From the NCBI RefSeq assembly GCF_022701215.1, contig NZ_CP089976.1, positions 1,980,001-2,012,000 of the forward strand: a stretch of 32,000 nt of DNA, read 5' to 3'. Positions 468-29,067 of this stretch are shown one piece after another; the first letter of the stretch is position 1, and every line of letters begins with the position of its first letter. The position numbers and the translations under genes are program-made. The DNA comes from Moraxella nasovis (GTDB lineage: Bacteria; Pseudomonadota; Gammaproteobacteria; Pseudomonadales; Moraxellaceae). The notes under the pieces were generated by a model. It worked only from the letters and a program-made list of their open reading frames with translations, had not been told where the DNA came from and did not search any database.

Positions 468-479
468 ATTGGAGAAAAC

Positions 480-2249: not shown

Positions 2250-2265
2250 CGATTATACGCCAAAA

Positions 2266-2904: not shown

Positions 2905-3112
2905 ACCATTCCTTTTGTCTTAATTGCATTTGATTTTATATGCTACTGGGTGATTTTGCAAATAAATTTAGCAAAAAGTAATACAGTGGCAAGATTGGGG
3001 TCACAACCGCACTACACTTGGCATCTTTTTGTGATTTTTTGTATTAGGATTTGGTGCTTGTTGGTGATTTATGTTAAACTTAATAAATTAATCTAACTAA
3101 TAAGGGTGACGC

Positions 3113-7900: not shown

Positions 7901-8563
7901 ACGCTTGGGGCAGGGTTTGTGCTTGCCAGTGAAGACTTAGAAATTCGTGGGGCAGGCGAGATTTTGGGTAAGGAGCAATCAGGTAATATGCAGACCATTG
8001 GCTTTGGGCTATATATGGATATGCTTGAGCGTGCCACTAAAGCAATCAAGCAAGGCAAAACGCCTAACCTTGCAACACCGCTTGAGTTAGTCAGTGATAT
8101 CAATGTGCATGCATCTGCCTTAATCCCTGACGATTATTTAGGCGATGTGTCAGAGCGGCTACTATTTTATAAGCGTATTAGCAATCTTGATGAAATTGAT
8201 GAGCTTAATGACATCAAAACTGAGATGATTGATCGATTTGGTGCATTGCCTATCCCAACAAAGACACTATTTGCTGTCCACGCCCTACGAATTAAGGCTC
8301 ATGCCTTAGGTATCGGTAAGATTGACGCAAATGCAAAAGCGATTACCCTTGAGTTTAATCAAGATACACCCGTTGATGGTCTGGCAATCGTTAAGCTTAT
8401 CCAGTCCGTTGATAAAGATGGTAGTTACCGCATGAATGGAGCGATGGGAGTGAGATTTAGTACAAAAGTTGAGATGAGCTTAGAGCAAAGAATGGCGAAA
8501 GTTGGCGAGATGCTGCATTATTTTTATCAAAGCATCCATGATGACAAAAGGCAGTCGGTGTGA
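4985..8563 (+). CDS. mfd: transcription-repair coupling factor
   Basis: The 1192-aa product has CarD-like and SF2 helicase motifs (GDVGFGKTEVAMRAAF, IIDEEHRFG, TATPIPRT, QLHQLRGRVGR). Confidence 0.95.
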   Translation: MHMPQINIPTLKDAHTAHVQNLEGLAFAFWLSGFIKVQADTLHVVIADTQERLYQLEHELRFFGVVAHSFADYETLVYDQLAVHQDIISERIHLLTNMPKSGVLLVSVQTLMQRICPPQFLLGHHFDLRVGDSFDIDSERERLIKAGYRHVDNVFEAGEFAIRGSVVDIFAMGQALPFRLDLFDDEIEYIKFFDPQNQRTLSDEALDKLKKDSLAHNNDFEYSRLPDKPKTDEFMVLPAREFALVDGRENFRQNFAKIFGDVSARKVELYIDVLAGIAPAGIEYYAPLFFDLDEWQASGTLFDYLPKNTSMIMMGDVAHHHTQVWDQLQARYHNYGHDKQTPILAPKWLFLPFNEFFARLKPFAKVQFDKKACANDAFIGWQNSLVPSVSINHKQSEPLADLLQFLQHANQKTLIVAESAGRREILLELLKDKVRVTVVADFNEFLGDLSNFNENHIALTVAPIEQGLMLHNNATTICVLSEAQIFGRQITTTQRRTRTMSQALIVKSVSEMSKGSLVVHIEHGIGRYQGLTMLDLGDGEQEFIHLKYADDASIYVPITQLALIGRYSGTDSEAVQLSKIGSGKWDKAKQKTLEQIYDVAAELLNVQARRNAKSGISFDIDMQSYELFASSFEYEETIDQMVAIDNILHDMKQNKPMDRLICGDVGFGKTEVAMRAAFVAVQAGYQVAVLVPTTLLAGQHEDSFKTRFADWAVRIESLSRFVSKKSQDAVLADLAAGKVDIVIGTHKLLQDDVKFKNLGLMIIDEEHRFGVRHKDKIKAMQSDVDSLSMTATPIPRTLNMALSGMQDISIIATPPARRLAIKTFVTPKSDIAIKEAMLREILRGGQVYFLHNDVASIETMAETLKELVPQARVGVAHGQMPERELSAVMSDFYHKRFNVLIASTIIETGIDVPNANTIIINRADKFGLAQLHQLRGRVGRSHHQAYCYLLVPSLKGLTADAKKRLEAISRANTLGAGFVLASEDLEIRGAGEILGKEQSGNMQTIGFGLYMDMLERATKAIKQGKTPNLATPLELVSDINVHASALIPDDYLGDVSERLLFYKRISNLDEIDELNDIKTEMIDRFGALPIPTKTLFAVHALRIKAHALGIGKIDANAKAITLEFNQDTPVDGLAIVKLIQSVDKDGSYRMNGAMGVRFSTKVEMSLEQRMAKVGEMLHYFYQSIHDDKRQSV

Positions 8564-8628
8564 TGATAATGACACGGCTGGCAAGCCTATGCTTGAGTGG
8601 ATTTTAAGTAGGCAGATAAAATGGTCTA

Positions 8629-8637
8629 TGCTATAAT
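8629..8637 (+). promoter_or_regulatory. extended -10 element (TGCTATAAT) upstream of queH
   Basis: It is an exact TGnTATAAT match lying 27 nt upstream of the ATG. Confidence 0.4.
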
Positions 8638-8663
8638 TAACAGTTAATTTAAATTTATCATAT

Positions 8664-9458
8664 ATGAAGATTATGACAAAAGTAAAAGCAAAGCAGGTCT
8701 TTGACCGAGATTATCCCAATAAAGCCATTAAAACCATCACCTTAGATGACATCGCCAAAGATGTGATGACAGTGTTTGACAAGCCTGATGATGCTGATAT
8801 TGTCGTCAGTGATATTTTGCGGGAAAAACTTATCCCGCCAAATGGTCAAAATAAAGTGTTACTGCATTCTTGCTGTGCTCCTTGTTCAGGAGAAGTTATG
8901 GAAGCTATGCTAGCAAGCGGCGTGGATTTTACCATTTATTTTTATAATCCCAACATTCACCCTAAAAAAGAGTACGAAATTCGCAAAAACGAAAATATTG
9001 CTTTTGCCAAAAAACACGGTATTCCTTTTGTGGACGCTGATTATGATATGGATAACTGGTTTGAGCGTGCAAAAGGCATGGAAAATGACCCTGAGCGTGG
9101 CAGACGCTGCACCATGTGTTTTGATATGCGGTTTGAGCGGACAGCGTTATATGCCCATGAGCATGGATTTCCTGTGATTACCAGCTCGTTGGGGATTTCT
9201 CGTTGGAAAAACATGGCACAGATTAATGATTGCGGGGTGCGTGCTGCCAGTCCTTATGATGATGTGGTGTACTGGGAGTATAACTGGCGTAAAGGCGGTG
9301 GGAGTTCTCGCATGATTGAAATTAGTAAGCGTGAGCATTTTTATCAGCAAGAATACTGTGGCTGTGCTTACTCTATGCGTGATAGCAATAACTACCGCCG
9401 AAGTGTGGGGCGTGAGCCGATTAAAATTGGCGTCAAATATTATGGTGATGAAGAATAA
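8664..9458 (+). CDS. queH: epoxyqueuosine reductase QueH (DUF208 family)
   Basis: It carries the conserved Cys clusters [18 protein letters not shown] and QEYCGCAYS typical of QueH. Confidence 0.82.
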
Positions 9459-9523
9459 CACCGATTATCATAACCTTATGGGTAAAATTGATTTGTGCAT
9501 TGCCATGATAAGTCCACAATTTA

Positions 9524-9532
9524 TGCTATAAT
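9524..9532 (+). promoter_or_regulatory. extended -10 element (TGCTATAAT) upstream of the HIT gene
   Basis: It is an exact TGnTATAAT match lying 38 nt upstream of the ATG. Confidence 0.4.
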
Positions 9533-9569
9533 TTAATGAATTTTAAATAAAAATAAGAGAAAATAAATC

Positions 9570-10007
9570 ATGTTTCAATTACATCCAACACTTGCTAAAG
9601 ATACGTTTTTGGTAGGTGATTTTCCGTTATCTACTGTGCGTTTGATGAACGACTGCCAGTTTCCTTGGCTAATTTTGGTGCCACGTGTATCAGGCGTTAA
9701 AGAAATTTATGAGCTGTCGCACGTTGATCAAGTGCAGTTTTTGCGTGAATCAAGCTGGGTATCTAGTCAGATGGCGAAGATTTTTGGTGCAGATAAGATG
9801 AATGTTGCTGCACTTGGCAATCAAGTGTCTCAGCTGCATTTTCATCACATCGTCCGCTATCAAAACGACGCTAAATGGCCAAATCCTGTATGGGGCTCGC
9901 CTGCTATTCCCTATACCGCAGAAGTATTACAGCATATGCAACAGACACTGATGATAACCTTACGTGGTCACCACGAAATGCCTTTTGATTGGAAGATGAG
10001 TGTTTAG
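9570..10007 (+). CDS. HIT (histidine triad) family protein
   Basis: It has the histidine triad QLHFHHIVRY and the length typical of the family. An AAGAGA SD lies upstream. Confidence 0.82.
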   Translation: MFQLHPTLAKDTFLVGDFPLSTVRLMNDCQFPWLILVPRVSGVKEIYELSHVDQVQFLRESSWVSSQMAKIFGADKMNVAALGNQVSQLHFHHIVRYQNDAKWPNPVWGSPAIPYTAEVLQHMQQTLMITLRGHHEMPFDWKMSV

Positions 10008-10174
10008 AGATTAAGGCAGGATTATAGTTGGAAGCTGTTGAGATTTATATCATCAAGATTTGCGTCAATCTGCCCTACTAAATAGGTGGTAATTTCTGTT
10101 TCTTGTGGGGCAACTTGCACATTATCCGATGATAGCCAAGTGTTAATCCATGGTATTGGGTTAGATTTAGTAGG

Positions 10175-10489
10175 ATGTTCTATGGTAGTAAGTGGGAACT
10201 AAATCCCACAACTGCTTTTTATGATTGGCTGTATATCAATGCACTAAACCAAAACAAACAGTACCATCATGAGCTGTTAAGCTACCAAGCATTTACTGAC
10301 ATTGAATTCAACCCTGAAAAATCCATTAACTGCCAAGCCTATTCTGTGGCGATGTTTGTTGCCTTAGCAAAGAATGATATGCTCGGTGTATTAAAAGATA
10401 AAGAAGCATTTTTAGGTTTGTATCAAAAATACAAGATAGATAACACAACCAAATACCATAAAGAATTAAAACAGACAAGCCTACTATAA
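10175..10489 (+). CDS. hypothetical protein, possibly the 3' fragment of a longer gene
   Basis: The 104-codon ORF has plausible composition ([32 protein letters not shown]) but no SD. It starts abruptly at the island edge. I cannot assign a family. Confidence 0.4.
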
Positions 10490-10493
10490 ACCA

Positions 10494-10522
10494 AATAAAC
10501 CAAGCATATCACTTGGTTTATT
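10494..10522. terminator. bidirectional stem-loop between convergent genes
   Basis: AATAAACCAAG (10494-10504) pairs with CTTGGTTTATT (10512-10522) in an 11-bp stem flanked by A/T runs. Confidence 0.6.
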
Positions 10523-10880
10523 TTAATGTATTAAGGGTAGGTAGTCTAAACGGTGGGTGATAATCTAAATCTACAAGGACGATATAATCATCATAGCGTT
10601 GGTAATGTAACACATATTTACTGGTACAATCACCATACTCACCTACATACTCAGGTATGCCGATGTGGTAATGCCATAGATGATGTTGTTGTGCAAATCT
10701 GACATCATCAAGCCAAGTATATTTATGTCTAGGTACATTGTCTGATGACTTATTTCGTCCTATCAAACCTACCAATCCATACGCTTCAATATGCTTAACA
10801 AAAGTAGCAATCTTGGTTAGGTCATCATCACTTAACTTATCTAAGATATTTAAAAAGTGATTGGTATAGCTTACTTTCAT
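10518..10880 (-). CDS. putative type II toxin (RelE/ParE-superfamily-like, family unassigned)
   Basis: The ATG at 10880 overlaps the antitoxin stop (ATGA). The product is 120 aa with a C-terminal KYVLHYQRYDDYIVLVDLDYH strand pattern and a LWHYHIG motif. Its position lies downstream of an RHH antitoxin. Confidence 0.5.
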   Translation of the reverse strand: MKVSYTNHFLNILDKLSDDDLTKIATFVKHIEAYGLVGLIGRNKSSDNVPRHKYTWLDDVRFAQQHHLWHYHIGIPEYVGEYGDCTSKYVLHYQRYDDYIVLVDLDYHPPFRLPTLNTLK

Positions 10881-11107
10881 CGTGAACGTACCCAAGCAAC
10901 AAATTCTGTATTAGAATTAAACTTTGGTGCTTCTACAATACCACTGTTGATAGAAGCAAGAATACGTTCTTTATTAAAAGGGAAATCTTCCATATCACGC
11001 AACAACACATACTCTGCATATTCTTGTATGCTTAGGTCATGTGCTTTGGCTTGATGTTCAAAAGCACCTTGTAATTCATCAGGGATACTTACCATAAACT
11101 GTAACAT
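10877..11107 (-). CDS. ribbon-helix-helix (CopG/MetJ-like) antitoxin
   Basis: A strong AAGGAG SD precedes the start. The N-terminal MVSIPDELQGAFEHQAKAHDLSIQEYAEYVL is a typical RHH. A 4-nt ATGA overlap couples it to the downstream toxin. Confidence 0.65.
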   Translation of the reverse strand: MLQFMVSIPDELQGAFEHQAKAHDLSIQEYAEYVLLRDMEDFPFNKERILASINSGIVEAPKFNSNTEFVAWVRSR

Positions 11108-11128
11108 ATCAGCTCCTTAATTATTATC

Positions 11129-11160
11129 TTAGTATAACCCAAATTTAGTATAACCCAAAT
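11129..11160. promoter_or_regulatory. perfect 2 x 16-bp direct repeat (TTAGTATAACCCAAAT); likely TA operator overlapping the promoter
   Basis: The two copies are 11129-11144 and 11145-11160, lying 22-53 nt upstream of the antitoxin ATG. On the minus strand each copy contains TATACT. Confidence 0.55.
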
Positions 11161-11554
11161 CAAAACCAAGTAATAATAACTAATTATTATATTAAATATA
11201 AAACCAATAGTATAAGGTTATAAAAACCACATGAGATAAAAGAATAAAAGATATTAAAAATAAACACTTATTATATTATTTAATATTTAACCGTAACACA
11301 TAAACCATAATAACACTTCACTCATTCGCTATCGCTCATGGCTGGTTTGACGCAAGCTAACGGAATGTAAGGTGGTGTAAGTTGTGTGATGATGATATAG
11401 TAAATTTATATAATATATGATAATACAGGGGGTATTTGATAGATTAGGTCATCTAGATGGGTAGTAGGGTGTGAAAAAACAGCTCGTAGTATAGATTACT
11501 TAAAATACATTTGTCAATGCTATTTTTGTATTAATGTTATTATGCTATTGTAAC

Positions 11555-11590
11555 AAAGACATGATTGCTGTAATCATGTCTTTTTTATTG
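11555..11590 (+). terminator. intrinsic-terminator-like hairpin immediately upstream of the giant ORF
   Basis: AAAGACATGATT (11555-11566) pairs with AATCATGTCTTT (11572-11583) in a 12-bp stem, followed by TTTTATT. There is no upstream plus-strand gene for it to terminate. Confidence 0.55.
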
Positions 11591-11619
11591 TCTAAACAAA
11601 ATATGCTGTAACCCTTAGG

Positions 11620-14600
11620 GTGTACGGAGCAGGTATTGCAAATACGGTGAATACAGTACAAGATGGCTTGGTTGATGCTATTAGAACAGAGTATGAAAAC
11701 ATCAGTAAGCTTGTTCGTAAGAATGACTACACACAAGCAACTGAAAGAGCCTTAAAGCTACAAGAGCAGTTAAGAGTACTATTAGCAGACCCTAATTTTA
11801 ATCTACCTAATGCTGACCAGCTACTATCAAAACAAACGTGGCTTGATGCACAACCTTCTACAGGCTGGTATGCTAACCCTAAAAATAAATATAGAGTATT
11901 TAACCTAGAGCAACAGCTTAGAGCTAATACGTCATGGGTGTTAAAAGAAATTTTTGATACAGCACGTATGTCTTATATGGGTGAGATGATACAGACTCAA
12001 CACGATAATACAGCATTAGCAGAAAGAGCTACTAATATCTATATACGTGTCTTTGATGAAAAAGTAAAACAAGTAATTGAGCAAAATAAACAACAAGCCA
12101 ACACACCACAGCAAGCTGATGCTATAAACTTAAGCATAGAGCAATACCAACAAATCCAAGAAGAGCTTAAAGCGATATTCCCAAGCATTAAAACCCCGTT
12201 TATTGGTGAAAATGCTTTAGATTGGACAGATAATGGGTATCACCCTGTTAAGAGTGTAGAAACCTTACAAGAAGACCTAAGCAGTGAGCCACTAACTAGA
12301 GATAGCAATGGCAATATAAATTATCATCAGCTATCAGCAAGTATGCGTAAGATGGTGTTTAAGGGTTTAGCAACAACGTCATTCCAAACCCAAAGCGTAG
12401 ATGCTTATGTCACAGCAATCACAAGCTCTGGTGGTGGACACCCTAATAACCACATATCTATGAATAACCACGATAGTAACAGCGGTGGTATTCATTTTGT
12501 TACAGATATGGCTAAAGCCCAAAATAAAGCATTCTTTTATGGTTTAGCTACTTATCATGCTAATGAAGCTACCTTAGATGCCTTTTTGCGAACTATATTA
12601 GGTGCATTAAACACTTATCAAGGTAAGAAACCACCTATAGCATTAGTTGGTTCTTCTACAGGAAATATAGATTCCTTACTTAATCTTGTGAAAACTACCA
12701 AACAACAAGAGCTAGCTAAACTAAAAGGCTTACTAGCTTTACAAAAAATTCAGCAATACGCTACAGAAGGGGGTGAGTACCTTGTTGCAGGTGAAGATAG
12801 AACCTTTGTGATAAAGCAGATTGAAGCTTTAGAAGAACGGTTTGAAGACTACGAAAAACAAGCCAAGCAGATTCACACAGCTTATAAGGCACTAGCTAAA
12901 AAGCAAAATAATGGTGAACAAACAAATAAAGCTGTGACTAAACCTAACTTAAAAGAAAGCTTAACTCTTAGTGAGAGAAATGGTAGTGTTATCAACATCT
13001 GGCACGGCTCTAATGAGAACGCTAATTTATCTAACTTGGCTTTAAGACCATTTACTGCTAAGAATGGTAGAAAATACCAATCTGTAGAACACTTCTACCA
13101 AAGCCATAAAACAGGTAAATTTGATGAAACCATCTATGGAAATGTGGGTTGGTTTAAAGCAGGAACTAAGATAAAAAAAGGGACAGCAAAGACAGAAAAT
13201 GACTTTAATATTAAGCTAATGAAAGCAGGTATTAAAATGTCATTTGAGCAAAACCCAAGAGCATTACGAGAACTATTAGCAACAGGTAATGCTACCTTAA
13301 CGCATACCCAAGAAACAGGTATGTGGAGAGAGATGTTCCCTAAACTTTTAATGGAAGTTAGAGATGAGTTAGGACAAGTAGAGCAACAAGAAAGTACTGA
13401 TAACCTAGTTAAAGAGACTAAAGCATATTTTGATAAATACTTAAAAGGTAAATCGTTCGATACCGTGATTGGTAAAGTTCATGTATTGGGAAGTAGCTGG
13501 CAGAAGAAGTTGAAGCATGGAATAAAAACAGACCACCTAAGAGCTAAGGCAATTCCGTTTATCCCTGATATTCTTACTAAAGGTGTTTATGAAGGTAAGC
13601 AGGATTTGGGGAAAATAAGAAATGATACTTACGTTGCTTTCCACTCTTTTACAAAAGAGTTAGACATCGATGACGAAAAAGTATTCGCAAGATTATTGGT
13701 AGGTGAAAGGGCAAATAATGAGTATAAATTTGTAGCTTATAGTATTTACCCTAAAAAAGAGAACTCCGATATTGGTGATTCTGGAGACTTAGCCAGAGCC
13801 GTATCGGAGTTCGAAGATAGTGTAGCAAACCAAGATGAAGATGTCAAACCAACCCTAACAGGTAAATCTCCTTACTTGGCTAAAGACCAAGCTAAATCTG
13901 ACATAGCTAATAAGTTTATTGGTTTTGGGGCAAAAGGTAGTTCTACTGATGTATATAGACAAGATTGGGGCAATAAAGCCAATACAGGGAGCTATACAAG
14001 TACAGATAAGGTATTTGTATCTATAAATGGTAAACGCCCTAACAGGATAGGTGTAGAAGCATATAAAGCAGAACTGGATTTAGCCATTCAAGCAGGTGCT
14101 GTACTCATTACTGATAAAGCGTATGATAGAAATAGACCCTTTAATGTAGGGGAAAGGGAAGTAGCTGAGTACTTAAATCAAAAAGGGTATGTAGAAACTT
14201 CAGATGGTATTTGGGGTAGGGCATCTAATGAATCTAAAGACGTGAAATACCAAGCTAATAGCTTTGGTGAAAGACCAAACTTAAAAGATGTAGCTGATAT
14301 TGATGTCGTTGAGATAAACGCTAAAGAGCTTGGCTTTAAGCAAACTAAACAATTAGCTGATGAAATTTTAAGACAGCTACAACAAACAGACGCAATATAC
14401 AACCATGATACTGGCTGGAATTTACAGGTAGGTAAAAAAGACCGTAAAAAGATGGGAGATAATAATAATCTATCCCACGCTACTAGCCAAGCGGTACAAG
14501 GTATAAAAGAGCTTGTAAGAAATGCTGTTGTTGCTGAAACTCACCAAGACGTTAAGCATGGTAATGAAAGAGTTACGGCAATACATAGAATGTATGTTCC

Positions 14601-17600
14601 TGCAGACATCAATGGGCAATTACACCGTGTTAAATTGACTATTAAAGATTACAGCTTAAATGATGGTACAAAAAGAAAAAATCTCCATGCTATTGAAGCG
14701 ATAGAGATTGAAAATGCCCTGCTGGGAACTCTGCCACCCGATGCTACCAATGGGGTAATTCAAGGGGTAGCTCAACCAACCACAGGGCATAAACTAAGTA
14801 TAGTTAATCTTTTAAAAGGAGTCAAGCACGATGGAGATGATGGGGTGTTTTTTGATACAGCACCTACAAGACGTCTTGGTTTTAAAGATTTAGAAACAGA
14901 CAAATTACAAGCACAGAATGTAATAGCATCTGACACAGACATTAGAGTAAATAACACACAAGTGCTAAAGCGTCTGTTAATATCTAAATTTGATAAAGAA
15001 GATACCACACATCTGTATGCTCGTCAGCATTTACGAAACGTACTTGCTCTAGTTCAACCAATCAACCCTACGGTTGAAATTAAAGTAACAGCAGATGGGG
15101 ATTATCAAGGTGTGTATGATATATCAGATAATACCATTACGATTAGTGAAACGTACGCAAATACAGCAAGCTATAAAAACTTAGTGGGTGTGTTAACTCA
15201 TGAGTTAGGACACGCCACAACCATGCAACGCTTAAGAGATATTCGTGCAGGTAAAGTGACTTCACCTAAAGTACTACAAGCTTTAAACCATCTTATCAAT
15301 AAACGAAACACCATCTTAACTGAACTAAATAAAGCAGGTGTAGCTTTAAGTGATAAACAAGCTTATATCCTAGAAGCAGGGAAGTATAGCGATGAAAATC
15401 AGTATGGGATAGAAGAGCTTATCAGTCATGTCTTAGGTAACGATGTAGAAGCTTTACGTTTATTAACTGAGTATGGGGGTAATAAGACAGACTTATCCAA
15501 AAATACCAAAGGGATTAAAGCCTTTATAAATGCAGTTAAAAACTTATTTACACCAAACTTGGATAATAAAAAAGCTCAAGGTAAAAAGCAGTTTGAAGCT
15601 CAGTATTCAGACTTTATGGGTGCATTAATAGAGCTTACCCAACCACTAGATGACATATCAGATAACACAGACCTTACACCAAATGGTTTAGATTTATTAG
15701 ATGAGTTAACAACTCAAGATGTCACAACCCAAGTGATTGCTAACCATAAACTAGCTGCTCATGCTTATTTTAATGAAGCAGATGAAGTTTACGCTCACTA
15801 TCAAGATGTGGCTCATAAATCCACGATTGAAGTGCTTAAACAACTTCCTAAAGGTAACATTAGTGAGACGCATAACGCTAAGCTAGATGGTTTAATAGAT
15901 ACACTACTTTCCAGCTTTTATAATAAACACCACAATGCTAGTGCCTTATTGGCTAACCAAGATAAACTAGATAAAGCGATAATAAGTGATGATAACCAAG
16001 TGCTTAGTCATGGCTTTAACTTAAGTGCAAAAGAACTGGCAAGTTATCAAGCAGTAAAAGCTGTGTTAGATAGCTTTGGGAATGCACAGCGTCATGAAGC
16101 CTATCAAGAGCTACGGCATATCTATGAAGAAATGCTAGATAACAAGGCAGGGTATCAGCAATTTATAAACTCTGATAACCCAACCAAAGATGATATTGAG
16201 CTGGCTAAAAAACAGTATGATTTTTTATTTCCTAAAAAAGAAACTGACCATACACCAGCACATAGATTGGTTGCACTTAGTTTAACCAGTGAGCAGATGT
16301 ACAATCTGTTAAACCAAAAACGTCAAATATTAAAAAATAAGTCTGATAATCAAAGCTGGTTTGATAAAGCTATGGGGTTATTTAAAACACTATTAGATGT
16401 GCTACTACAAAAAGTGAAAGGGGATAAGTCTAAGCCTATTAATGCACAGATTGATTTTTTGGTAAATAAACTAACAAAATTAGATGAGCATTATAGATTA
16501 CAAAGTCTAAGACGCTCTGATAAGCTATGGGAGTACAGAAAGTTTATTACTGTACCTGCTAATAAAGCGGTGAAAGGGGCACTTGATGTGGGTAAATCAG
16601 TTACTGTGGCTGTATTTCCTAAAACACAGACTTATTTTGATGCTGTGGTAAAAACACCATCACAGATTGCACGAGACATATCAAATGCCATCAATGCGTC
16701 AGATTCGTCTGATAAACCACTAGGCACACTAAGAGAGCTGATGAATGAATATGGTACAACAACCATCATGCAAAAGCTTATGACTCGTATGCTAGCAACA
16801 ACTCAAAGCATAGGACAAGAACGAGAGTTAACACGAGCTTCTACCAAGAGTCAGTTACTGGCATTTTTTAAGGATAAGCCTACAGCAAACCAAGCACAAG
16901 CAATAACTAAGGGGCTATATGAGACAGACGCAAGTAGCTTACTTAATTATCATGATATGGATACCACGCTTGGGTTAATCGTAAATCATAGCTTACGAGA
17001 TGGGCGTATCACAGCGATACGTAATCAGATTACACATAACTTTCAGCTAAACTTAGATGAGATAAATGGGATTATTAAAGCAACAATGGTCGCTGCTCGT
17101 AAAATGTATGATGGGGCAACTTTAGCAGATTATTTCTCAAATCCTGAGTTAATTGCCTTTACTTATAATAAACCAAATAATAAAGAATTAATTGGTTTAA
17201 TTGATGAGCTAACCACGCTTACTGCGTTACGTTATTCACACGATGGTGTATATAAAAAAGCAGATATGAGTGAGCTTATCGCATTAATCCAAAATGATGA
17301 AGATGCCATTCGTCAAGTTTTAAAGCACCATCATACGCATATGACTGCATTTAAAACACAAGAATTTGCATCAAATCCTTTTAGTTTTACCAAAGGCTAT
17401 ACACCTGAGCTATATGATGAGCTAAGAGCGGTAAAAGCTGTAACAGGTGAAGAGCTTCAAGAATACTTAAATAAAGGATGGGCGTTAGAAACACCTGATG
17501 GGATAAAACAAGATGACTTTGATGATACACATACACGCTATTTGGTAACAACAGCAGATGCTGGTAAACCCCATTATCAATCAGGTGTGTTAGAGTTATC

Positions 17601-19152
17601 TGATACCCATGCTAAAGGTACGGTGGTTTATGAAGATTCTATACAAGTTGCTCAGATAGTTAAAAAACAAATCAAAGAGCGAGCTTTACATAATAAAGAA
17701 GTAAGCTGGCAATCTTTTAGTCCTTTTGATGAAGATACAAATCCAAAGGGTAGATTTATTGCATCTTATAATCCAGATGGTTCAGTTGCAAATCTACATT
17801 ATGAGATGGAATCTAAAACAAGAGATAGACTGCTAAACCGTAATTTAAATTTTAGTGACATTATGGGTTCTATGGTAGGTAACACACAAGCCAAACAACC
17901 AATGAGAGAACATCAAAGAGATATTGTGCGTGCATTACATAAAGACTATACAGATGCAATGAAATCACCAGATGCTAATATGTTGGATTTTTTGGTATTA
18001 ACACCTGATTCTTCTGACCCACAAATTGCAGAGCATTACAGATTACTACCTTATAGTTTTAAAGATGAAGCCAATAAGTTATTTGGATATAACCGTCCTA
18101 TTTATATTCGTAAAGATATTTATAATATGGTACTAGGCTATAGACGAGTAAGTTTAGCTAATGTGTGGGATAAACCAGAAAACGAGCTTAATGAGTTTGA
18201 AAAACGATTTAAAAATCTGGTTACATCTAAATGGGGTGATAAAGCACGTGGTAGAGTGTTATGGACAGGTAAACATTGGGGTGCTTTAGTTAAACAAGTA
18301 CAAAAATCTTGGGTAGTACGTAATCCATCTACATTAAAAGGTAATGTGATTTCTAATGCACTACTGTTAAGCTTAAAAGGTGTAAATCCAAAAGAAGTGA
18401 TAACAGGTCATGTACGAGTATGGAAACATGGTAAAGAGTATCGTGACCTTGTCACTAAGGTAGCTCGTATTAAGGTACAACTAGAAGCAGGTACAGCTAA
18501 TCAAGACCATCTACTAAGACAGCTAACAAACCTAACAGCAAGCATTAATTCACATTATTTACATAAGTTTATGCAAGCTGGTTTGATGAGTACGATTGTA
18601 GAAGACATTTCAGATGATAAAGGTCAATACACGTCAGCTTTAACGCGTAAGTTAGATAAATTTTATAATAATTTACCTAAGCCTTTAAAAGCTACGTTAG
18701 ATTTTGTGTTTATTACTGAAGATTCTAAGTTGTATAAAGCTCTTTATGATGCAACGCAATTTAGTGACTTTGCTGCTAAAGTGTTATTAATGGAGCAATT
18801 AATGAAAGAAGGACATAGTTTTAATTATGCTTATAGTGAAGCTCAAGATGCCTTTATTGCTTTTGATGTGCCTACCAGTAAGTATATGGATTATGCAAAT
18901 CGTATTGGTTTATTTATGTTTACTAAGTGGGCAATACGCTTTCAACGAGTGCTTGAAAAGCAATTTAAGAAAACACCAGCATCTGTCATAATGCAACACC
19001 TGTTAATAGAGAAGTTTACTGATGAAGCAGGTATTGCTAATCCTTGGGTAGGATTTGATATTATCTCTGGGAATACTGGTTTAGAAGATGGTGCATTTGG
19101 TTTATTAGATGCCTATTTACATACGCCTGTGATAGACCATATCGTTGATTAG
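11620..19152 (+). CDS. giant multidomain (polyvalent-type) protein, 2510 codons: N-terminal unknown region, NADAR domain, nuclease-like modules, HEXXH zincin, ~1200-aa helical C-terminal region
   Basis: It is an uninterrupted 7.5-kb frame. The NADAR alignment to YbiA covers residues ~456-584. HELGH lies at residues 1194-1198 (nt 15199-15213). The start is uncertain: GTG with no SD, and the first ATG in frame is codon 117. Confidence 0.85.
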   Translation: MYGAGIANTVNTVQDGLVDAIRTEYENISKLVRKNDYTQATERALKLQEQLRVLLADPNFNLPNADQLLSKQTWLDAQPSTGWYANPKNKYRVFNLEQQLRANTSWVLKEIFDTARMSYMGEMIQTQHDNTALAERATNIYIRVFDEKVKQVIEQNKQQANTPQQADAINLSIEQYQQIQEELKAIFPSIKTPFIGENALDWTDNGYHPVKSVETLQEDLSSEPLTRDSNGNINYHQLSASMRKMVFKGLATTSFQTQSVDAYVTAITSSGGGHPNNHISMNNHDSNSGGIHFVTDMAKAQNKAFFYGLATYHANEATLDAFLRTILGALNTYQGKKPPIALVGSSTGNIDSLLNLVKTTKQQELAKLKGLLALQKIQQYATEGGEYLVAGEDRTFVIKQIEALEERFEDYEKQAKQIHTAYKALAKKQNNGEQTNKAVTKPNLKESLTLSERNGSVINIWHGSNENANLSNLALRPFTAKNGRKYQSVEHFYQSHKTGKFDETIYGNVGWFKAGTKIKKGTAKTENDFNIKLMKAGIKMSFEQNPRALRELLATGNATLTHTQETGMWREMFPKLLMEVRDELGQVEQQESTDNLVKETKAYFDKYLKGKSFDTVIGKVHVLGSSWQKKLKHGIKTDHLRAKAIPFIPDILTKGVYEGKQDLGKIRNDTYVAFHSFTKELDIDDEKVFARLLVGERANNEYKFVAYSIYPKKENSDIGDSGDLARAVSEFEDSVANQDEDVKPTLTGKSPYLAKDQAKSDIANKFIGFGAKGSSTDVYRQDWGNKANTGSYTSTDKVFVSINGKRPNRIGVEAYKAELDLAIQAGAVLITDKAYDRNRPFNVGEREVAEYLNQKGYVETSDGIWGRASNESKDVKYQANSFGERPNLKDVADIDVVEINAKELGFKQTKQLADEILRQLQQTDAIYNHDTGWNLQVGKKDRKKMGDNNNLSHATSQAVQGIKELVRNAVVAETHQDVKHGNERVTAIHRMYVPADINGQLHRVKLTIKDYSLNDGTKRKNLHAIEAIEIENALLGTLPPDATNGVIQGVAQPTTGHKLSIVNLLKGVKHDGDDGVFFDTAPTRRLGFKDLETDKLQAQNVIASDTDIRVNNTQVLKRLLISKFDKEDTTHLYARQHLRNVLALVQPINPTVEIKVTADGDYQGVYDISDNTITISETYANTASYKNLVGVLTHELGHATTMQRLRDIRAGKVTSPKVLQALNHLINKRNTILTELNKAGVALSDKQAYILEAGKYSDENQYGIEELISHVLGNDVEALRLLTEYGGNKTDLSKNTKGIKAFINAVKNLFTPNLDNKKAQGKKQFEAQYSDFMGALIELTQPLDDISDNTDLTPNGLDLLDELTTQDVTTQVIANHKLAAHAYFNEADEVYAHYQDVAHKSTIEVLKQLPKGNISETHNAKLDGLIDTLLSSFYNKHHNASALLANQDKLDKAIISDDNQVLSHGFNLSAKELASYQAVKAVLDSFGNAQRHEAYQELRHIYEEMLDNKAGYQQFINSDNPTKDDIELAKKQYDFLFPKKETDHTPAHRLVALSLTSEQMYNLLNQKRQILKNKSDNQSWFDKAMGLFKTLLDVLLQKVKGDKSKPINAQIDFLVNKLTKLDEHYRLQSLRRSDKLWEYRKFITVPANKAVKGALDVGKSVTVAVFPKTQTYFDAVVKTPSQIARDISNAINASDSSDKPLGTLRELMNEYGTTTIMQKLMTRMLATTQSIGQERELTRASTKSQLLAFFKDKPTANQAQAITKGLYETDASSLLNYHDMDTTLGLIVNHSLRDGRITAIRNQITHNFQLNLDEINGIIKATMVAARKMYDGATLADYFSNPELIAFTYNKPNNKELIGLIDELTTLTALRYSHDGVYKKADMSELIALIQNDEDAIRQVLKHHHTHMTAFKTQEFASNPFSFTKGYTPELYDELRAVKAVTGEELQEYLNKGWALETPDGIKQDDFDDTHTRYLVTTADAGKPHYQSGVLELSDTHAKGTVVYEDSIQVAQIVKKQIKERALHNKEVSWQSFSPFDEDTNPKGRFIASYNPDGSVANLHYEMESKTRDRLLNRNLNFSDIMGSMVGNTQAKQPMREHQRDIVRALHKDYTDAMKSPDANMLDFLVLTPDSSDPQIAEHYRLLPYSFKDEANKLFGYNRPIYIRKDIYNMVLGYRRVSLANVWDKPENELNEFEKRFKNLVTSKWGDKARGRVLWTGKHWGALVKQVQKSWVVRNPSTLKGNVISNALLLSLKGVNPKEVITGHVRVWKHGKEYRDLVTKVARIKVQLEAGTANQDHLLRQLTNLTASINSHYLHKFMQAGLMSTIVEDISDDKGQYTSALTRKLDKFYNNLPKPLKATLDFVFITEDSKLYKALYDATQFSDFAAKVLLMEQLMKEGHSFNYAYSEAQDAFIAFDVPTSKYMDYANRIGLFMFTKWAIRFQRVLEKQFKKTPASVIMQHLLIEKFTDEAGIANPWVGFDIISGNTGLEDGAFGLLDAYLHTPVIDHIVD

Positions 19153-19180
19153 GGAAAAACCATAATAAAATAAATTAAAT

Positions 19181-19210
19181 AAACCCACTTAATTGGTGGG
19201 TTTATTTATT
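19181..19210. terminator. bidirectional terminator between the giant ORF and the convergent small ORF
   Basis: AAACCCAC (19181-19188) pairs with GTGGGTTT (19196-19203), with A-rich sequence upstream and T-rich sequence downstream. Confidence 0.65.
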
Positions 19211-19231
19211 ATATGGTTTACAAATTATGGG

Positions 19232-19567
19232 TTAGTTAGCACTAAAAACTTTATCTAAGTTTACCCCATGAACTACTAACCATGCTTGAGCAGGGTAGCT
19301 ATTGACTGTTAAACGTCCTACTTCTACTTGGTGGAATTCCAGCTCATTTTCTAAACAGTAGTGACGTAAACTATGCCATGAGTAAGATTGTCCTGTAATA
19401 TTACTAACTTCAGAAGTAGATGCAGAAGGTACTTTAAACTTAAGGGGTTCAGCTGGTTTATCTGATTCATCAGCTAGTACTTCGTTAGTTAGATAATCTA
19501 TCATAATTTGAATCGCATTTCGTACTTCATCTTTTGAATAAATGTGGTTTAGCGTGGTCATTGACAT
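19232..19567 (-). CDS. hypothetical protein co-transcribed with the integrase (possible DNA-binding/recombination directionality factor)
   Basis: An AAGGAG SD precedes the start, which lies 28 nt downstream of the integrase stop. The 111-aa product has an acidic linker. No recognisable motif is present. Confidence 0.55.
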   Translation of the reverse strand: MSMTTLNHIYSKDEVRNAIQIMIDYLTNEVLADESDKPAEPLKFKVPSASTSEVSNITGQSYSWHSLRHYCLENELEFHQVEVGRLTVNSYPAQAWLVVHGVNLDKVFSAN

Positions 19568-19595
19568 AATAACTCCTTAGTTTTGTTGATTAAAA

Positions 19596-20501
19596 TTAAA
19601 GTTTAGTTGCTTGTTGTTTTAGACTATTCAAATAATTAAACCACAAGCGATAAGCATTGGTTTGTTCAGGTAAGTAATGGTAATGGTCGTAAACACTACG
19701 AATACCTGTGACTTGATGCCCTAGCATCATCTCAGCAACTGTAAGTGACGTAAAACTACTAAATCTAGTTCTTGCTGTGCGTCTTAGGTCGTGAATACAC
19801 CAAGGCTTCATCACATAGTGATACTGCTGATTTAGGTGTTGTCTGATACGTAGGGGTATTAAATTAGCCCAAGTGCGGGCTATAGGCTCATTAGCAGATA
19901 TTTTCTTAATTTGACGATTGCAAAGCAGTAATTCATTACCACTTAAAGCAATTAACTCATCAATAACTGCCAAAGATTCGTCCAGTATGGGACGAAAGAT
20001 AGGCGTGTGGGTACGATACCCCATCTTATGGTTAGACTGTGGTACAGTCCAAACCATCTGGATAAAATCAAAATCAGCCTTACGAGCTAATCTTAACTCT
20101 CCATTACGACAACCGTACAACAAAAGAAACTGAATGGCTAGACAGTTACGTTTAAATAAAGCACCATCTTGTAGTGCTTTAAATAACCATATCAATTCTT
20201 CATCATTCAGTACTCTTGACTTTTGTGGTTTTACAATCCCAAAATCAGCATAAGCGGTTAATTCTTTTAAGGGATTAGTAGTGATATAGCCGTGAGTTAC
20301 GCACCATTTCATTACCATACGAGCATAGATTAAAATTCTGTTGGCTATGCTAGGGGATTTTTGTTTAACTTCATCAATCAAACTGACCCAAAAACTCGTG
20401 CTAAGCTTATCTACAGGTATATCACCATATTTTTTTGAGGGGGGTTGATGTTGGATAAAAATATGGCATGGAGGCGGTAGGTGAAGTGGTTTGATGGGCA
20501 T
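19596..20501 (-). CDS. tyrosine recombinase, P4-type integrase lacking the N-terminal arm-binding domain (likely 5'-truncated)
   Basis: The catalytic signature is retained (GCRNGELRLAR, HDLRRTARTR, LGHQVTGIRSVYDHY). The product is only 301 aa, against about 400 for the family. An in-frame stop lies 4 codons upstream of the ATG. Confidence 0.8.
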   Translation of the reverse strand: MPIKPLHLPPPCHIFIQHQPPSKKYGDIPVDKLSTSFWVSLIDEVKQKSPSIANRILIYARMVMKWCVTHGYITTNPLKELTAYADFGIVKPQKSRVLNDEELIWLFKALQDGALFKRNCLAIQFLLLYGCRNGELRLARKADFDFIQMVWTVPQSNHKMGYRTHTPIFRPILDESLAVIDELIALSGNELLLCNRQIKKISANEPIARTWANLIPLRIRQHLNQQYHYVMKPWCIHDLRRTARTRFSSFTSLTVAEMMLGHQVTGIRSVYDHYHYLPEQTNAYRLWFNYLNSLKQQATKL

Positions 20502-20544
20502 CGTGATGATCGATTATTGTTCATGATGGGTTAAGCTGATGGTT

Positions 20545-20934
20545 TTATCTTGGCTGATGTTTGTGTGTTGTTTGGCGTGGTTTTTTGTGGGTAGGCTTGA
20601 TATGTACCTTAACGATGCCTTGTGATAACGGTGCAAGATGTGAGAACGCTTTTTTGGTCAAATCAATACGACCTGATTTACCGATACGGTCATTGACTTT
20701 GCAGATGATGGATTTGCCATTTTTTGCGTTGATGACTTTAACATAACTGCCAAGTTTGAACTGGTTGGACGCACAAGTCATGCCTTGATTGCTAAATCGC
20801 TCGCCATTGGCGGTTTTGCGTCCATTGAATTTATCGGCATAATAAGAGGCGGTTGCTGCTTGAGCGTGAATGGAGAGCGTGGTCAGTGCAATTGCCAAAA
20901 AAGCAGCAAAATAACTTTTTAAAGAATGATTCAT
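20545..20934 (-). CDS. RlpA-like double-psi beta-barrel (DPBB) secreted protein
   Basis: A signal peptide ends at AQA. The motif ASYYADKFNGRKTANGERF...VKVINAKNGKSIICKVNDRIG is typical of the RlpA family. Confidence 0.8.
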   Translation of the reverse strand: MNHSLKSYFAAFLAIALTTLSIHAQAATASYYADKFNGRKTANGERFSNQGMTCASNQFKLGSYVKVINAKNGKSIICKVNDRIGKSGRIDLTKKAFSHLAPLSQGIVKVHIKPTHKKPRQTTHKHQPR

Positions 20935-21293
20935 AATATTTGTTGGTTACAATGAATGGTCATTATACTAGATGATAAATTGTATTTGCAAATAATATGC
21001 CATAGCTTTACTTTGTCATCACAAAAAGATAAGGTTTGGGAAATATTGTTAAAAACGATGATTCAAAAACCACTATTTAAAAATAAGCCATCTTAAATCA
21101 TAACCTACCTTAAATCAAATCTACCCTACCTAATGCAAAAAGCACTACTTAAAAGCACTCAAATTGCAAAGATGAATTGGTAGGTTGAGAATAACTATGT
21201 GTGGTGATGTTGCAGTGGTATGATGAATTGTTTATAATATTTGGATATCTTTTATCATTATTTTTTATTATCATTAACAAAGGGTGTTAGGCT

Positions 21294-22502
21294 GTGGCAA
21301 TTTTATCTATGCAGGATTTGGATTTATTAGGCAAGCGTGTGCTGATTCGTGAAGATTTGAATGTGCCGATTAAAGACGGCGTAATTACAAGTGATATACG
21401 TCTTAAAGCTGCTATTCCTACCGTTGAAGAAGCCTTGAAAAAAGGAGCAGCAGTTATTGTGGCATCGCATTTAGGTCGTCCAACTGAAGGGGAAAAGGAG
21501 CAAAAATACTCGCTTAAGCCTGTGGCAGATTATTTGGCAAAAAACTTAGATTACCCTGTGTCTTTTTCAAATGACTACCTAGAGCATGGCGTAGACGCTA
21601 AGGCAGGCGAGCTGATAGTACTAGAAAACGTACGTTTTAACCAAGGCGAAAAGAAAAACAGCGAAACACTATCTAAACAATATGCCGATTTGTGTGACGT
21701 TTTCGTGATGGACGCATTTGGCACGGCACACAGAGCCCAAGCATCAACCGAAGGGGTTATTCGTGCAGCTGCTCGTGACGGTAAGCCTGTGTGTGCTGGT
21801 AATCTTTTATCAACGGAACTATCAGCACTGGCTACCGCACTAAATCAGCCAAAGCCACCTGTGCTTGCCATTGTTGGTGGCTCAAAAGTATCTACCAAGC
21901 TTGATGTGTTATTAAGCCTAGCTAAGATATGCGATAGTATTGTTGTGGGCGGTGGTATTGCCAATACGTTTTTGGCAGCCCAAGGGGTGAATGTCGGTGC
22001 ATCACTATATGAGCCTGACTTGATTGACACTGCTAAGGCTATCATGACGCAGACAAACATTTTATTACCAGATTATGTCGTTGTCGCTGATAAAGCCCAG
22101 ATTGATTTTGATGACTTTTTAGGTTCACTTTCTAAGGCAGATGCAGTCGTTAAGTCTGTTACTGAAATAGGCGAAAATGATATGATTTTAGACATTGCCA
22201 AACAAAGTGCTGAAAAAATTGGCGATGCGATTAAAAATGCCAAAACCATACTTTGGAATGGACCTGTGGGCGTCTTTGAAGTGGATAAATTTGGTATAGG
22301 TACACAGATTTTGTCTTTGGCAGTAAAAGACAGTGATGCTTTTAGTATTGCAGGTGGTGGTGATACATTGGCAGCAATTGATAAATATGGCGTAGCAGAT
22401 GATGTCAGTTATCTATCCACAGGCGGTGGGGCGTTTTTAGAGTTTGTTGAAGGTAAGACTTTGCCTGCCATTGCAGCATTAGAAGAGTTTGTTGCCAAAT
22501 AA
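21294..22502 (+). CDS. pgk: phosphoglycerate kinase
   Basis: It aligns fully with Pgk ([45 protein letters not shown]). The GTG start at 21294 matches the homolog N-terminus. Confidence 0.95.
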
Positions 22503-22664
22503 ATTGAAATAATTTTATTTTATATTAAGCTAAAAATCATTAATAGGTTAAATTATTGTAATGTTTTGTATTTAGACGGTAAAATCTATTGCAAATCATT
22601 GCAAATTTACCTATGATAGCATATTGTTTGATATAGATTACACGTTTAACTAGGTAGGTTTATC

Positions 22665-22919
22665 ATGAAAAAATTAGCTATATTTGGAGCGATGGTGGCA
22701 CTTGTGGCTTTGACAGCGTGCAGTCAAGAGACACAAGATAAAGCTGCTGAAGCTGTAGATTCAGCGAAAACAGATACTGCTGAAGTTGCTAAGCAAGCAG
22801 AAGCCGCAGCTCAAGGTGTTGCAGATGAAGCTGTCGCTGTCGCTCAAGATGTTAGCAGCGAAGTTGCAGCAGCAGAGAATACCGCAGAAAGCCAAGTGCC
22901 AGAAGATCAAAAATACTAA
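22665..22919 (+). CDS. small Ala/Glu-rich lipoprotein
   Basis: It has a signal peptide with the lipobox LTAC and a low-complexity acidic mature part, and a terminator follows. Confidence 0.6.
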   Translation: MKKLAIFGAMVALVALTACSQETQDKAAEAVDSAKTDTAEVAKQAEAAAQGVADEAVAVAQDVSSEVAAAENTAESQVPEDQKY

Positions 22920-22956
22920 GCTTGGCTACTTGGTATGTTAAGCTAACAGCGTACTA

Positions 22957-22983
22957 AGCTCGACTTATCGTCGGGCTTTTTTG
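22957..22983 (+). terminator. Rho-independent terminator
   Basis: AGCTCGAC (22957-22964) pairs with GTCGGGCT (22970-22977), followed by a T6 run. Confidence 0.6.
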
Positions 22984-23013
22984 TTGATTAGTCATGCAAG
23001 ACAGCTTATTATT

Positions 23014-25955: not shown

Positions 25956-27374
25956 ATGGTAGGCAAAACCCTATACGATAAATTATGGCAAGACCATTTG
26001 GTCAAACAGCGTGATGATGGCTCGGCACTCATCTATATTGACCGCCATTTATTGCATGAAGTAACTAGCCCCCAAGCTTTTGAAGGCTTATCTTTGGCAG
26101 GGCGGACACCTTGGCGATTGTCTGCTAATATCGCAACGCCTGACCATAACGTCCCCACTTCCACTTTTGAGCGTACACAAGGCATTAGCGGCATTAGCGA
26201 TGACATCTCACGCATTCAAGTCAAAACGCTTGATGACAACTGCAAAAATTTTAATGTCATGCAGTTTGGTATTAATGACGAACGCCAAGGCATTGTGCAT
26301 GTGGTCGGGCCTGAGCAAGGGCTTGTTTTACCGGGTATGACGGTGGTGTGCGGTGATAGTCATACTGCCACGCATGGGGCTTTGGGCTGTTTGGCACATG
26401 GTATTGGCACAAGTGAAGTGGAACACGTCTTGGCAACAGGGTGCTTGATTGCCAAAAAAATGAAAAATATGCGTATCGTGGTTGATGGCAGACTTGCCAA
26501 AGGCGTAACGCCAAAAGACGTGGTGCTGGCGATTATCGGTAACATTGGTACGGCTGGTGGTACAGGCTATGCCATTGAATTTGCAGGCGAAGTATTCAAT
26601 GATATGTCTATTGAAGGGCGTATGACTGTTTGTAATATGGCGATTGAAGCTGGGGCAAGGGTGGGACTTGTGGCGGTGGACGATAAAACCATTGACTATG
26701 TCAAAGGTCGTCCTTATGCACCCACAGGCGAGGATTGGGAGTGTGCGGCTACTTATTGGCGGTCGTTGCATTCTGACGAAGGGGCTGTCTTTGATAAAGA
26801 GATTTGGCTTGATGGCAGTCAAATTGCACCGCAGGTATCGTGGGGGACATCGCCTGAAATGGTGGTGGACATCACCCAATCTGTTCCGACTTTGCAGATG
26901 GCAAAAGATGAGACGCAAAAGGCAGATTGGCAACGTGCCTATGCTTATATGGGGCTGACAGCAGGTCAGTCATTAAGCGACATCAAGCTTGACCGTGTAT
27001 TTATTGGGTCGTGTACCAATTCACGCATTGAAGATTTGCGAGCGGCGGCAAGCGTGATAAAAGGTCGCAAAGTAGCGGATACTATCAAAGAAGCGTTGGT
27101 GGTGGCAGGCTCTGGATTGGTTAAAGCCCAAGCCGAACAAGAAGGTTTGGACAAAATCTTTAAAGAGGCAGGGTTTGAATGGCGGCAGCCGGGGTGTTCT
27201 ATGTGCCTTGCGATGAATGCTGATAAACTTAAAGCAGGTGAGCATTGTGCCAGTACCAGTAACCGTAATTTTGAAGGTCGTCAAGGCAATGGTGGACGCA
27301 CGCACCTTGTCAGTCCAGAAATGGCGGCAGCGGCAGCGATAGCAGGGCATTTTGTGGACGTGCGGACGTTTTGA
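25956..27374 (+). CDS. leuC: 3-isopropylmalate dehydratase large subunit
   Basis: It has aconitase-family motifs ([44 protein letters not shown]) and full-length collinearity. Confidence 0.95.
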
Positions 27375-28616: not shown

Positions 28617-28626
28617 TTATTGAACA

Positions 28627-29004: not shown

Positions 29005-29067
29005 TTATTTGTTAAAATTAAGGCAATCTATTTGGATTATCTTATTTTTTTGAAATTAAGGTGTAAA

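Follow-up and report, generated by a model that had tools for sequence, protein, structure and literature searches.

This analysis concerns a giant open reading frame (ORF) on the forward strand of Moraxella nasovis contig NZ_CP089976.1 (RefSeq assembly GCF_022701215.1), which occupies positions 11620-19152 of the 32,000-nucleotide (nt) stretch analysed (contig positions 1,980,001 to 2,012,000; the window, whose own numbering is used throughout). The frame runs for 2510 codons from a GTG, and its product is identical over 2501 residues to M. nasovis LU293_09615, annotated as a hypothetical protein of 2501 amino acids (aa); a second in-frame GTG at 11647 is the start implied by the NCBI product, and the first in-frame ATG lies at about codon 116. 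It is an inherited coding frame, as 2510 open codons in 36% GC DNA cannot occur by chance. An earlier reading made from the letters of the window (the sequence-only reading) had described a single ORF of this length in AT-richer DNA, and that description holds: the frame lies in an island of about 10.5 kb with a GC content of 33-37%, compared with 40-47% in the flanks. Both flanks are chromosomal, with mfd, queH and a HIT-family gene on the left and an rlpA-like gene, pgk, fba and ruvA on the right. The giant ORF, its domains and its closest surroundings are as follows.

11620-19152, + strand: giant ORF, GTG start, 2510 codons; very probably a 5'-truncated virion RNA polymerase (vRNAP, gp50-like) gene of an N4-like prophage
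11555-11590, + strand: terminator-like hairpin with a 13-pair stem and T-run (inverted repeat I20), directly upstream of the junction
11596-11619, + strand: in-frame codons before the ORF, TKYAVTLR, placed by motif B alignment including the lysine
11620-12954, + strand: C-terminal part of a single-subunit RNA polymerase domain (aa 1-445), placed by BLASTP and motif alignment
12985-13371, + strand: NADAR domain of the ADP-ribosyl glycohydrolase superfamily (aa 456-584)
13411-13722, + strand: LPD3, first copy (aa 598-701)
13852-14244, + strand: alpha/beta module without a family, common to other giant phage proteins (aa 745-875)
14338-14670, + strand: LPD3, second copy (aa 907-1017)
15007-15819, + strand: zincin-like HExxH domain, the MPTase of polyvalent proteins and C1 equivalent (aa ~1130-1400)
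15820-19149, + strand: helical domain, C2 equivalent (aa ~1401-2510)
19170-19214, no strand assigned: hairpin (inverted repeat I13) between the convergent giant ORF and orf111, which could be a terminator in either direction

An intact vRNAP is a protein of ~3500-4800 aa that is packaged inside the capsid and leaves it together with the DNA. The N-terminal domain (~1000 aa) serves ejection and envelope crossing, a T7-like polymerase domain transcribes the early genes, and a C-terminal domain made up of C1 and C2 is needed for packaging. The C-terminal half of the M. nasovis product, for which the sequence-only reading had suggested a new family, proved to be the C-terminal domain of such a protein. 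Residues 1060-2468 match positions 2004-3365 of the 3406 in the PHROG 2206 profile, 'virion RNA polymerase' (E 2e-198), PHROG 19273 is matched as well (E 4e-133), and residues 1460-2455 align with gp50 2440-3444 in the PDB sequences of the N4 vRNAP (9pnq, 11gp, 11fw; E ~1e-24). In the N4 structure of 2026, C1 (2124-2375) carries a conserved HExxH and C2 (2376-3500) is large, helical and without structural relatives, and the C-terminal domain restrains the polymerase (PMC13434306); the HEXXH region of gp50 had been classified as a zincin-like MPTase (Iyer et al. 2017, PMC5512222). C1 and the ~1100-aa C2 of the giant ORF align end to end with those of N4 gp50 and its Schitoviridae relatives (PDB 9pnq, 11gp, 2PO4; PHROG 2206), and the order polymerase, HExxH, helical domain is the same, although identity in the C-terminal domain is only ~18%. 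The HELGH at aa 1194-1198 (nt 15199-15213), already picked out from the letters, aligns with N4 'LIHELVHAST' (HELVH); H1194, E1195 and H1198 are invariant in the family alignment, and the region matches Pfam SprT-like (E 1e-5). Of 35 invariant columns in the C-terminal domain, the M. nasovis protein departs at 5 positions and has 1 gap, compared with 0-3 departures in most relatives, a count made on the C-terminal 1400 aa only; in a full-length alignment the inserted modules were misplaced against the polymerase domains of relatives. These extra departures are a weak hint of relaxed constraint, not proof of it.

The N-terminal ~450 aa, which the sequence-only reading had left unassigned, correspond to the back end of the vRNAP polymerase domain. 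By BLASTP, residues 2-423 align with residues 865-1289 of relative P0002 (E 4e-16) and with P0003 1153-1577, and residues 121-442 align with residues 1768-2094 of the vRNAP of Acinetobacter phage Presley (E 1e-18, with a tblastn match too); residues 2-424 also align with residues 2361-2788 of a 4610-aa protein of Moraxella nonliquefaciens (locus L006). Four relatives have alignments that extend to the front edge of the frame, and all four alignments start at query residue 2, opposite residue 865 in P0002, 1153 in P0003, 2361 in L006 and 371 in L010. The relatives that cover aa 1-445 all carry 370-2360 further residues upstream, the intact ones 865-2360.

This front edge falls inside a catalytic motif. 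The ORF opens with VYGAGIANTV, in which VYGAG is placed on polymerase motif B (N4 IYGSG, Y1675), the motif B tyrosine being Y2; in N4 the motif B residues R1663, K1667 and Y1675 lie in "RGIAKNPLTITIYGSGARGI". The eight in-frame codons that precede the ORF, TKYAVTLR, align with "LKAILIPFG" of relatives and preserve the K-x7-Y spacing, so that at the junction *TKYAVTLRVYGAG stands against RKMLKAILIPFGYGAG in P0002 and RGIAKNPLTITIYGSG in N4, and the motif B context of L006, RKTLKAILIPFGYGAG, aligns with the start of the giant ORF in the same way. A TAA at 11593-11595, two codons before the motif B lysine, is where the homology ends. Tblastn with the N-terminal parts of eight relatives detected nothing of the lost 5' portion elsewhere in the 32-kb window. 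As the motif B homology runs to the lysine and stops at the TAA, and the 5' part is nowhere in the window, the gene is cut within a few nucleotides of 11591-11596, inside motif B, by deletion or replacement and not by point mutation. Motif C is retained (NNHDSN, with D285 invariant in the alignments), as is a conserved QYAxEGGEY at aa 379-387. The ORF itself, however, contains just the YG (aa 2-3) of motif B and the HD of motif C, the motif B lysine preceding the start codon; it lacks motif A, T/DxxGR, the arginine of motif B and the entire N-terminal domain, and motif A and T/DxxGR are absent throughout the window. Without motif A, T/DxxGR and that arginine, the remnant cannot polymerise RNA. 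Compared with N4 gp50, in which the motif B Tyr-Gly and motif C Asp have recognisable counterparts, it no longer has the N-terminal domain, and its polymerase domain lacks the first ~60%.

The DNA on the other side of the junction offers little by way of expression signals. The hairpin at 11555-11590, 30 nt 5' of the start of the giant ORF, is unrelated to vRNAP genes and belongs to the sequence that took the place of the lost 5' part. The sole + strand promoter-like site 5' of the giant ORF (11392-11421, 9/12 matches) is upstream of this hairpin, and a sequence scan found none between the hairpin and the start of the ORF; the best promoter-like site in the spacer (11/12 matches) is directed away from the giant ORF, toward a toxin-antitoxin-like pair. 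Neither GTG (11620 or 11647) is preceded by a Shine-Dalgarno sequence at a workable spacing.

Between the polymerase and HExxH domains, ~680 aa are inserted that N4 gp50 lacks (NADAR, LPD3, the alpha/beta module and a second LPD3), so that the HExxH domain does not follow directly on the polymerase as it does in N4. The NADAR module recognised in the sequence-only reading is recovered by Pfam PF08719 over aa 465-564 (E 8e-6; 26.6 bits, below the gathering score of 35.1) and by PDB 2b3w, YbiA (E 0.004). It shares 52-56% identity with its counterpart in P0002, P0003, P0013 and P0014, relatives that carry precomputed PF08719 matches. The two modules described as nuclease-like are present and are copies of LPD3: Pfam PF18798 matches the whole protein in two stretches (106 bits, E 1.2e-30; gathering cutoff of 27 passed), the first copy alone scoring 52.9 bits (E 5e-14) and the second being the best stretch of the whole-protein match. 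Residues 879-1083, around the second copy, are 63% identical to a gene in a Moraxella sp. metagenome-assembled genome (L005). The alpha/beta module, suggested at aa ~745-867 and here extended to aa ~745-875, is real and recurs in other giant phage proteins with 51% identity (P0004 918-1051) and 42% identity (P0020 930-1083), and more copies occur in L085, L022 and L026. Its ~130 aa have the invariant motifs AKDQ, FIG.G..G.ST, NG..NR and GER, and its AlphaFold model (pLDDT 75) shows a beta-alpha pattern; no Pfam, PDB sequence or significant Foldseek match was found for it. The top Foldseek match, the SLOG domain of ThsA, was not significant (E 0.65), and any assignment was rejected. The position of these modules varies between proteins: P0018 carries its NADAR ahead of the polymerase, and in P0004 it is the alpha/beta module that precedes the polymerase domain. 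Because the same modules are found at other positions in other vRNAPs, they behave as mobile cargo of the ejected polymerase.

The layout fits the polyvalent proteins, for which N4 gp50 was a worked example and a Moraxella prophage homolog, DR90_1081, was cited (Iyer, Burroughs, Anand, de Souza and Aravind 2017, PMC5512222). The sequence-only reading had placed the ORF in this class, and the assignment is borne out by a NADAR domain, two LPD3 domains, the alpha/beta module, HExxH and a polymerase remnant in one chain, the beads-on-a-string build of a giant that joins a zincin-like MPTase and LPD domains to an N4-type polymerase module. The counter-defence modules inserted between the polymerase and the C-terminal domain make the parent protein polyvalent as Iyer et al. 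(2017, PMC5512222) use the word. The giant ORF differs from the proteins described there in being a truncated remnant outside any packaging-gene or transfer-gene neighbourhood. The partners of the polymerase listed in that study are ART, lysozyme and PBECR, and NADAR is not mentioned in it (0 occurrences).

The remaining features of the island are few, and the companions that had been listed for the giant ORF (a toxin-antitoxin pair, a small ORF and a crippled integrase) are there: a toxin-antitoxin-like pair, ORFs of 104 aa and 111 aa and a short integrase.

10175-10489, + strand: 104-aa ORF at the left island edge, C-terminal fragment of a DarT1-associated NADAR antitoxin
10518-11107, - strand: toxin-antitoxin-like two-gene cassette (125 aa and 76 aa)
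19232-19567, - strand: orf111, 111 aa, related to a small phage regulator (PHROG 4936)
19596-20501, - strand: tyrosine integrase, 301 aa, without its N-terminal part (PHROG 1, Pfam Phage_integrase)

No virion, replication, packaging or conjugation genes were found elsewhere in the 32-kb window, in agreement with the earlier description of an island without virion or conjugation genes, and unlike N4 gp50 the giant ORF does not stand beside gp51-gp53-type ejection genes or virion genes. Megablast of window positions 8000-23000 against phage and plasmid collections returned no match. A search for att-type direct repeats around the island gave only short pairs at chance level, which do not define its exact borders, and the island genes gained no useful assignment from NCBIfam. 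Apart from the giant ORF, orf111 is the sole island sequence that matches any ORF in 96 related loci, the only further match in the window being dus, an ordinary chromosomal gene. It matches PHROG 4936 (E 8e-13) over profile positions 197-257 of 257 only, and its tblastn matches (L006, L014, L015, L095 and L096) lie beside giant vRNAP genes of Moraxella-type N4-like proviruses; as its homologs adjoin such genes in other proviruses of this type, orf111 probably derives from the same prophage as the giant ORF.

At least two of the neighbours are fragments as well, the NADAR antitoxin tail and the integrase without its N-terminal part. The 104-aa ORF matches Pfam PF22397 with E 1e-33 over profile positions 130-211 of 212 only (82 residues). 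No DarT toxin gene lies near this antitoxin tail, and a remnant of a DarT-NADAR system is thus found 1.1 kb from a phage gene with a NADAR domain of its own. The integrase matches PHROG 1 (E 9e-42) over positions 199-455 of 611 and Pfam Phage_integrase (E 7e-9), with the catalytic R, HxxR and Y motifs readable. The toxin-antitoxin-like cassette has no Pfam or NCBIfam match, its 125-aa gene belonging to PHROG 5954, labelled as unknown function. It has a near-consensus promoter-like site at 11517-11488 (11/12 matches), a perfect tandem 16-nt repeat (TTAGTATAACCCAAAT, twice, at 11129-11160) beside the start of its first gene and a terminator at 10523-10493. This cassette and an AT-rich spacer stand where the 5' part of the vRNAP gene is expected.

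Relatives of the giant ORF occur on contigs of phage size. In the protein database there are 27 non-self homologs of 1833-4359 aa (24 of the 27 exceeding 3200 aa) on contigs of up to ~79 kb, and IMG/VR holds at least 206 relatives, many of them on contigs of 70-79 kb. The two neighbourhoods that were read, those of P0003 and P0004, have the gene order of N4, with portal, capsid, an SLT-domain gp51-like protein and the vRNAP, followed 3' by an opposite-strand replication module with Sak4-like, HNH and primase genes. Over the C-terminal domain no relative exceeds ~29% identity to the M. nasovis protein, and the parental lineage is therefore unsampled; exact peptide patterns likewise found no close relatives in viral and metagenome contigs.

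Zheng et al. (2023, PMC10654107) described N4-like proviruses on 27 contigs of Moraxella, and among Moraxella species-representative genomes we found one intact gene and three short remnants. The intact gene (L006 2921-16753, M. nonliquefaciens CCUG 348) encodes the 4610-aa vRNAP-type protein, which has two HExxH motifs. It is followed directly by a chromosomal tRNA methyltransferase gene, bipA and ompA, and upstream of it is a divergent small orf111 homolog rather than gp51-53-type genes, an order unlike that of canonical N4. The giant ORF shares with the Moraxella proviruses (PMC10654107) and with L006 the host genus and the position of a giant gene at the edge of the insert beside an orf111-like ORF. 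It differs from L006, to which it is ~25-27% identical, in that the latter is full length, with 2360 aa ahead of the start point of the giant ORF, and is integrated at another chromosomal site (trmA-like, bipA, ompA). The three remnants are stubs of 223, 187 and 108 aa (L011 10004-10675, L012 10136-10699 and L013 65-391, in Moraxella sp. VT-16-12, a Moraxella metagenome-assembled genome and M. cuniculi respectively) that represent the extreme C-terminus of vRNAP, with 38-41% identity. That of VT-16-12, the only stub whose neighbours were checked, has an acyl-CoA dehydrogenase gene on one side and a DUF4760 gene on the other, in an ordinary chromosomal setting, and that of M. cuniculi is preceded by an in-frame stop, which makes it a genuine stub and not the product of a contig end. 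The persistence of 3' stubs in other Moraxella genomes suggests that the 3' end of the vRNAP gene survives prophage decay, perhaps since it is at the prophage border. In an isolate-derived provirus with a 4.8-kaa vRNAP-type gene (L094, IMGVR_UViG_2744054833_000002), the primase has shrunk to its C-terminal 210 aa and a virion structural protein is present as a fragment, which suggests another degraded N4-like prophage.

We propose that the giant ORF is in all likelihood the 3' ~72% of a gp50-type vRNAP gene from a temperate N4-like (Schitoviridae-like) prophage, and recent debris. Apart from the inserted modules, the protein falls within one known family, that of the virion RNA polymerases, and its relatives lie on phage-sized contigs; these are in essence the results that the sequence-only reading had named as refuting it. 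What is observed comprises the homology and where it breaks off, the parts that are missing, the fragmentary state of the neighbours and the phage setting of relatives, and the frame is presumably still open because the truncation was recent rather than because of selection. A temperate N4-like phage would have integrated into the M. nasovis chromosome, and deletions would then have taken nearly all of the prophage, leaving the 3' 7.5 kb of the vRNAP gene, the regulator-like ORF and the shortened integrase. A deletion or replacement would have removed everything upstream of the motif B tyrosine, together with the rest of the prophage on that side, so that the break now adjoins the AT-rich spacer and the toxin-antitoxin-like cassette, which brings a promoter-like site, a repeat and a terminator of its own. 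The product of such a remnant would have no virion to be packed into and its frame no recognisable expression signals.

Several points weigh against this explanation. Direct comparison of aa 1-445 with the solved N4 mini-vRNAP was unsuccessful or not significant: a hidden Markov model of eight relatives had no N4 match among PDB sequences, and hhalign of the same profile against mini-vRNAP aligned motif B only (K670-Y678), with a probability of 0.75%. The assignment of this region to a polymerase accordingly comes by transitive homology, through Presley and metagenomic vRNAPs that are annotated or Pfam-marked, and from the motif register. An uninterrupted 7.5-kb frame is also what selection would be expected to leave, and the family-invariant HExxH and C2 residues are mostly retained. 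By a rough estimate, which was not computed, a neutral frame of 7.5 kb should break after about 0.1% divergence; therefore either the truncation is very recent or the frame has been maintained. No collection contained a relative above 30% identity.

The alternative that best survives is that the remnant has been domesticated, a truncated or internally initiated product being expressed and kept by selection. The NADAR domain might then act against DNA ADP-ribosylation, or the C-terminal domain might block N4-like vRNAPs or ejection and so bring about superinfection exclusion. The unbroken 2510-codon frame would fit this, as would the retention of HExxH and of most family-invariant C-terminal residues; the C-terminal domain of N4 on its own, supplied in trans and in high excess, inhibits the polymerase domain (PMC13434306), and free-standing phage NADAR enzymes (AdfN) neutralise DarTG1 (PMC11257639). 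However, the frame begins midway through a folded catalytic domain, with a terminator directly upstream and neither a promoter nor a well-spaced ribosome-binding site, and in its truncated form it is known from one genome. The island neighbours are gene fragments, the short 3' stubs in other Moraxella genomes look like decay and not retention, and the M. nasovis protein departs slightly more often from invariant positions than its relatives do. We therefore regard domestication as unlikely, and the step taken in the sequence-only reading from an intact frame to selection and on to a domesticated effector is unsupported, as the frame lacks a native start, a promoter and a well-spaced ribosome-binding site, has a terminator just upstream and stands among fragments. 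One version of this idea, which we consider improbable, is that the remnant is not inert and that a product with the NADAR, LPD3, HExxH and C-terminal domains, made by read-through or internal initiation, protects the host from related N4-like phages. The C-terminal domain could then bind and inhibit the incoming vRNAP or compete in assembly of the ejectosome, and, if true, this would be a prophage-derived decoy form of superinfection exclusion.

Another possibility is that the gene is complete, a naturally polymerase-less polyvalent gene of a small integrative island that encodes a stand-alone conflict effector. An integrase and a toxin-antitoxin-like pair are often found in small defence islands, and NADAR, LPD3 and MPTase modules are typical of polyvalent proteins. 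We consider this very improbable, and it is largely refuted by the break point: the motif B homology extends 5' of the start codon and ends at the TAA, aa 1-445 make up only part of a catalytic domain, in which motif C is present and motif A is not, the relatives that cover this region all continue upstream, and the integrase lacks its own N-terminal part. That a chimeric join in the assembly produced the apparent truncation is barely credible, as nothing specific speaks for it beyond the coincidence of the junction with a hairpin, while the source contig is a 2.03-Mb replicon-size record, coherent chromosomal genes lie on both flanks and similar remnants occur in independent Moraxella assemblies.

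Three further observations were made elsewhere in the window. Two overlapping + strand ORFs (29716-30072 and 30053-30358) match the two halves of Peptidase_S51 (profile positions 27-110 and 110-203) and form a frameshifted pseudogene, which suggests ongoing gene decay in the genome. At 28086-29004 (+ strand) a PEBP-family gene and an Imm41 immunity-protein gene in a patch of 35% GC split the leuC-like (25956-27374) and leuD-like (29032-29715) aconitase-family subunit genes, and look like a small insertion. At 444-800 (+ strand) an orphan LydA-type phage holin gene (PF16083, E 5e-16) adjoins the dihydrouridine synthase gene dus; the only other ORF near it is an unassigned 178-aa frame that partly overlaps dus, no other phage genes being present there, and the holin gene may be another prophage remnant.

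The vRNAP family and N4-like prophages of Moraxella were already known, and the locus opens no long-standing question. With the giant ORF read as a truncated vRNAP gene, LU293_09615 is better labelled a truncated N4-like virion RNA polymerase (prophage remnant) than a hypothetical LPD3 protein, and the case illustrates that a very long intact ORF alone is not evidence of function. The locus adds a data point to the view that temperate N4-like phages lived in Moraxella and decay there, and it adds a lineage with NADAR and LPD3 between the polymerase and the C-terminal domain of an ejected polymerase. We found no description of a NADAR domain embedded in a vRNAP in the literature consulted. The NADAR of the giant ORF belongs to the same superfamily as AdfN and the DarT1-associated NADAR antitoxins; unlike AdfN it is a domain of a giant ejected protein and not free-standing, and its activity is predicted. 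Novelty at the level of the family, that is, N4-like phages with NADAR built into the ejected polymerase, seems more likely than the novelty of a decoy, and concerns the vRNAP family rather than this decayed copy. In such phages an anti-DarT enzyme would arrive together with the DNA.

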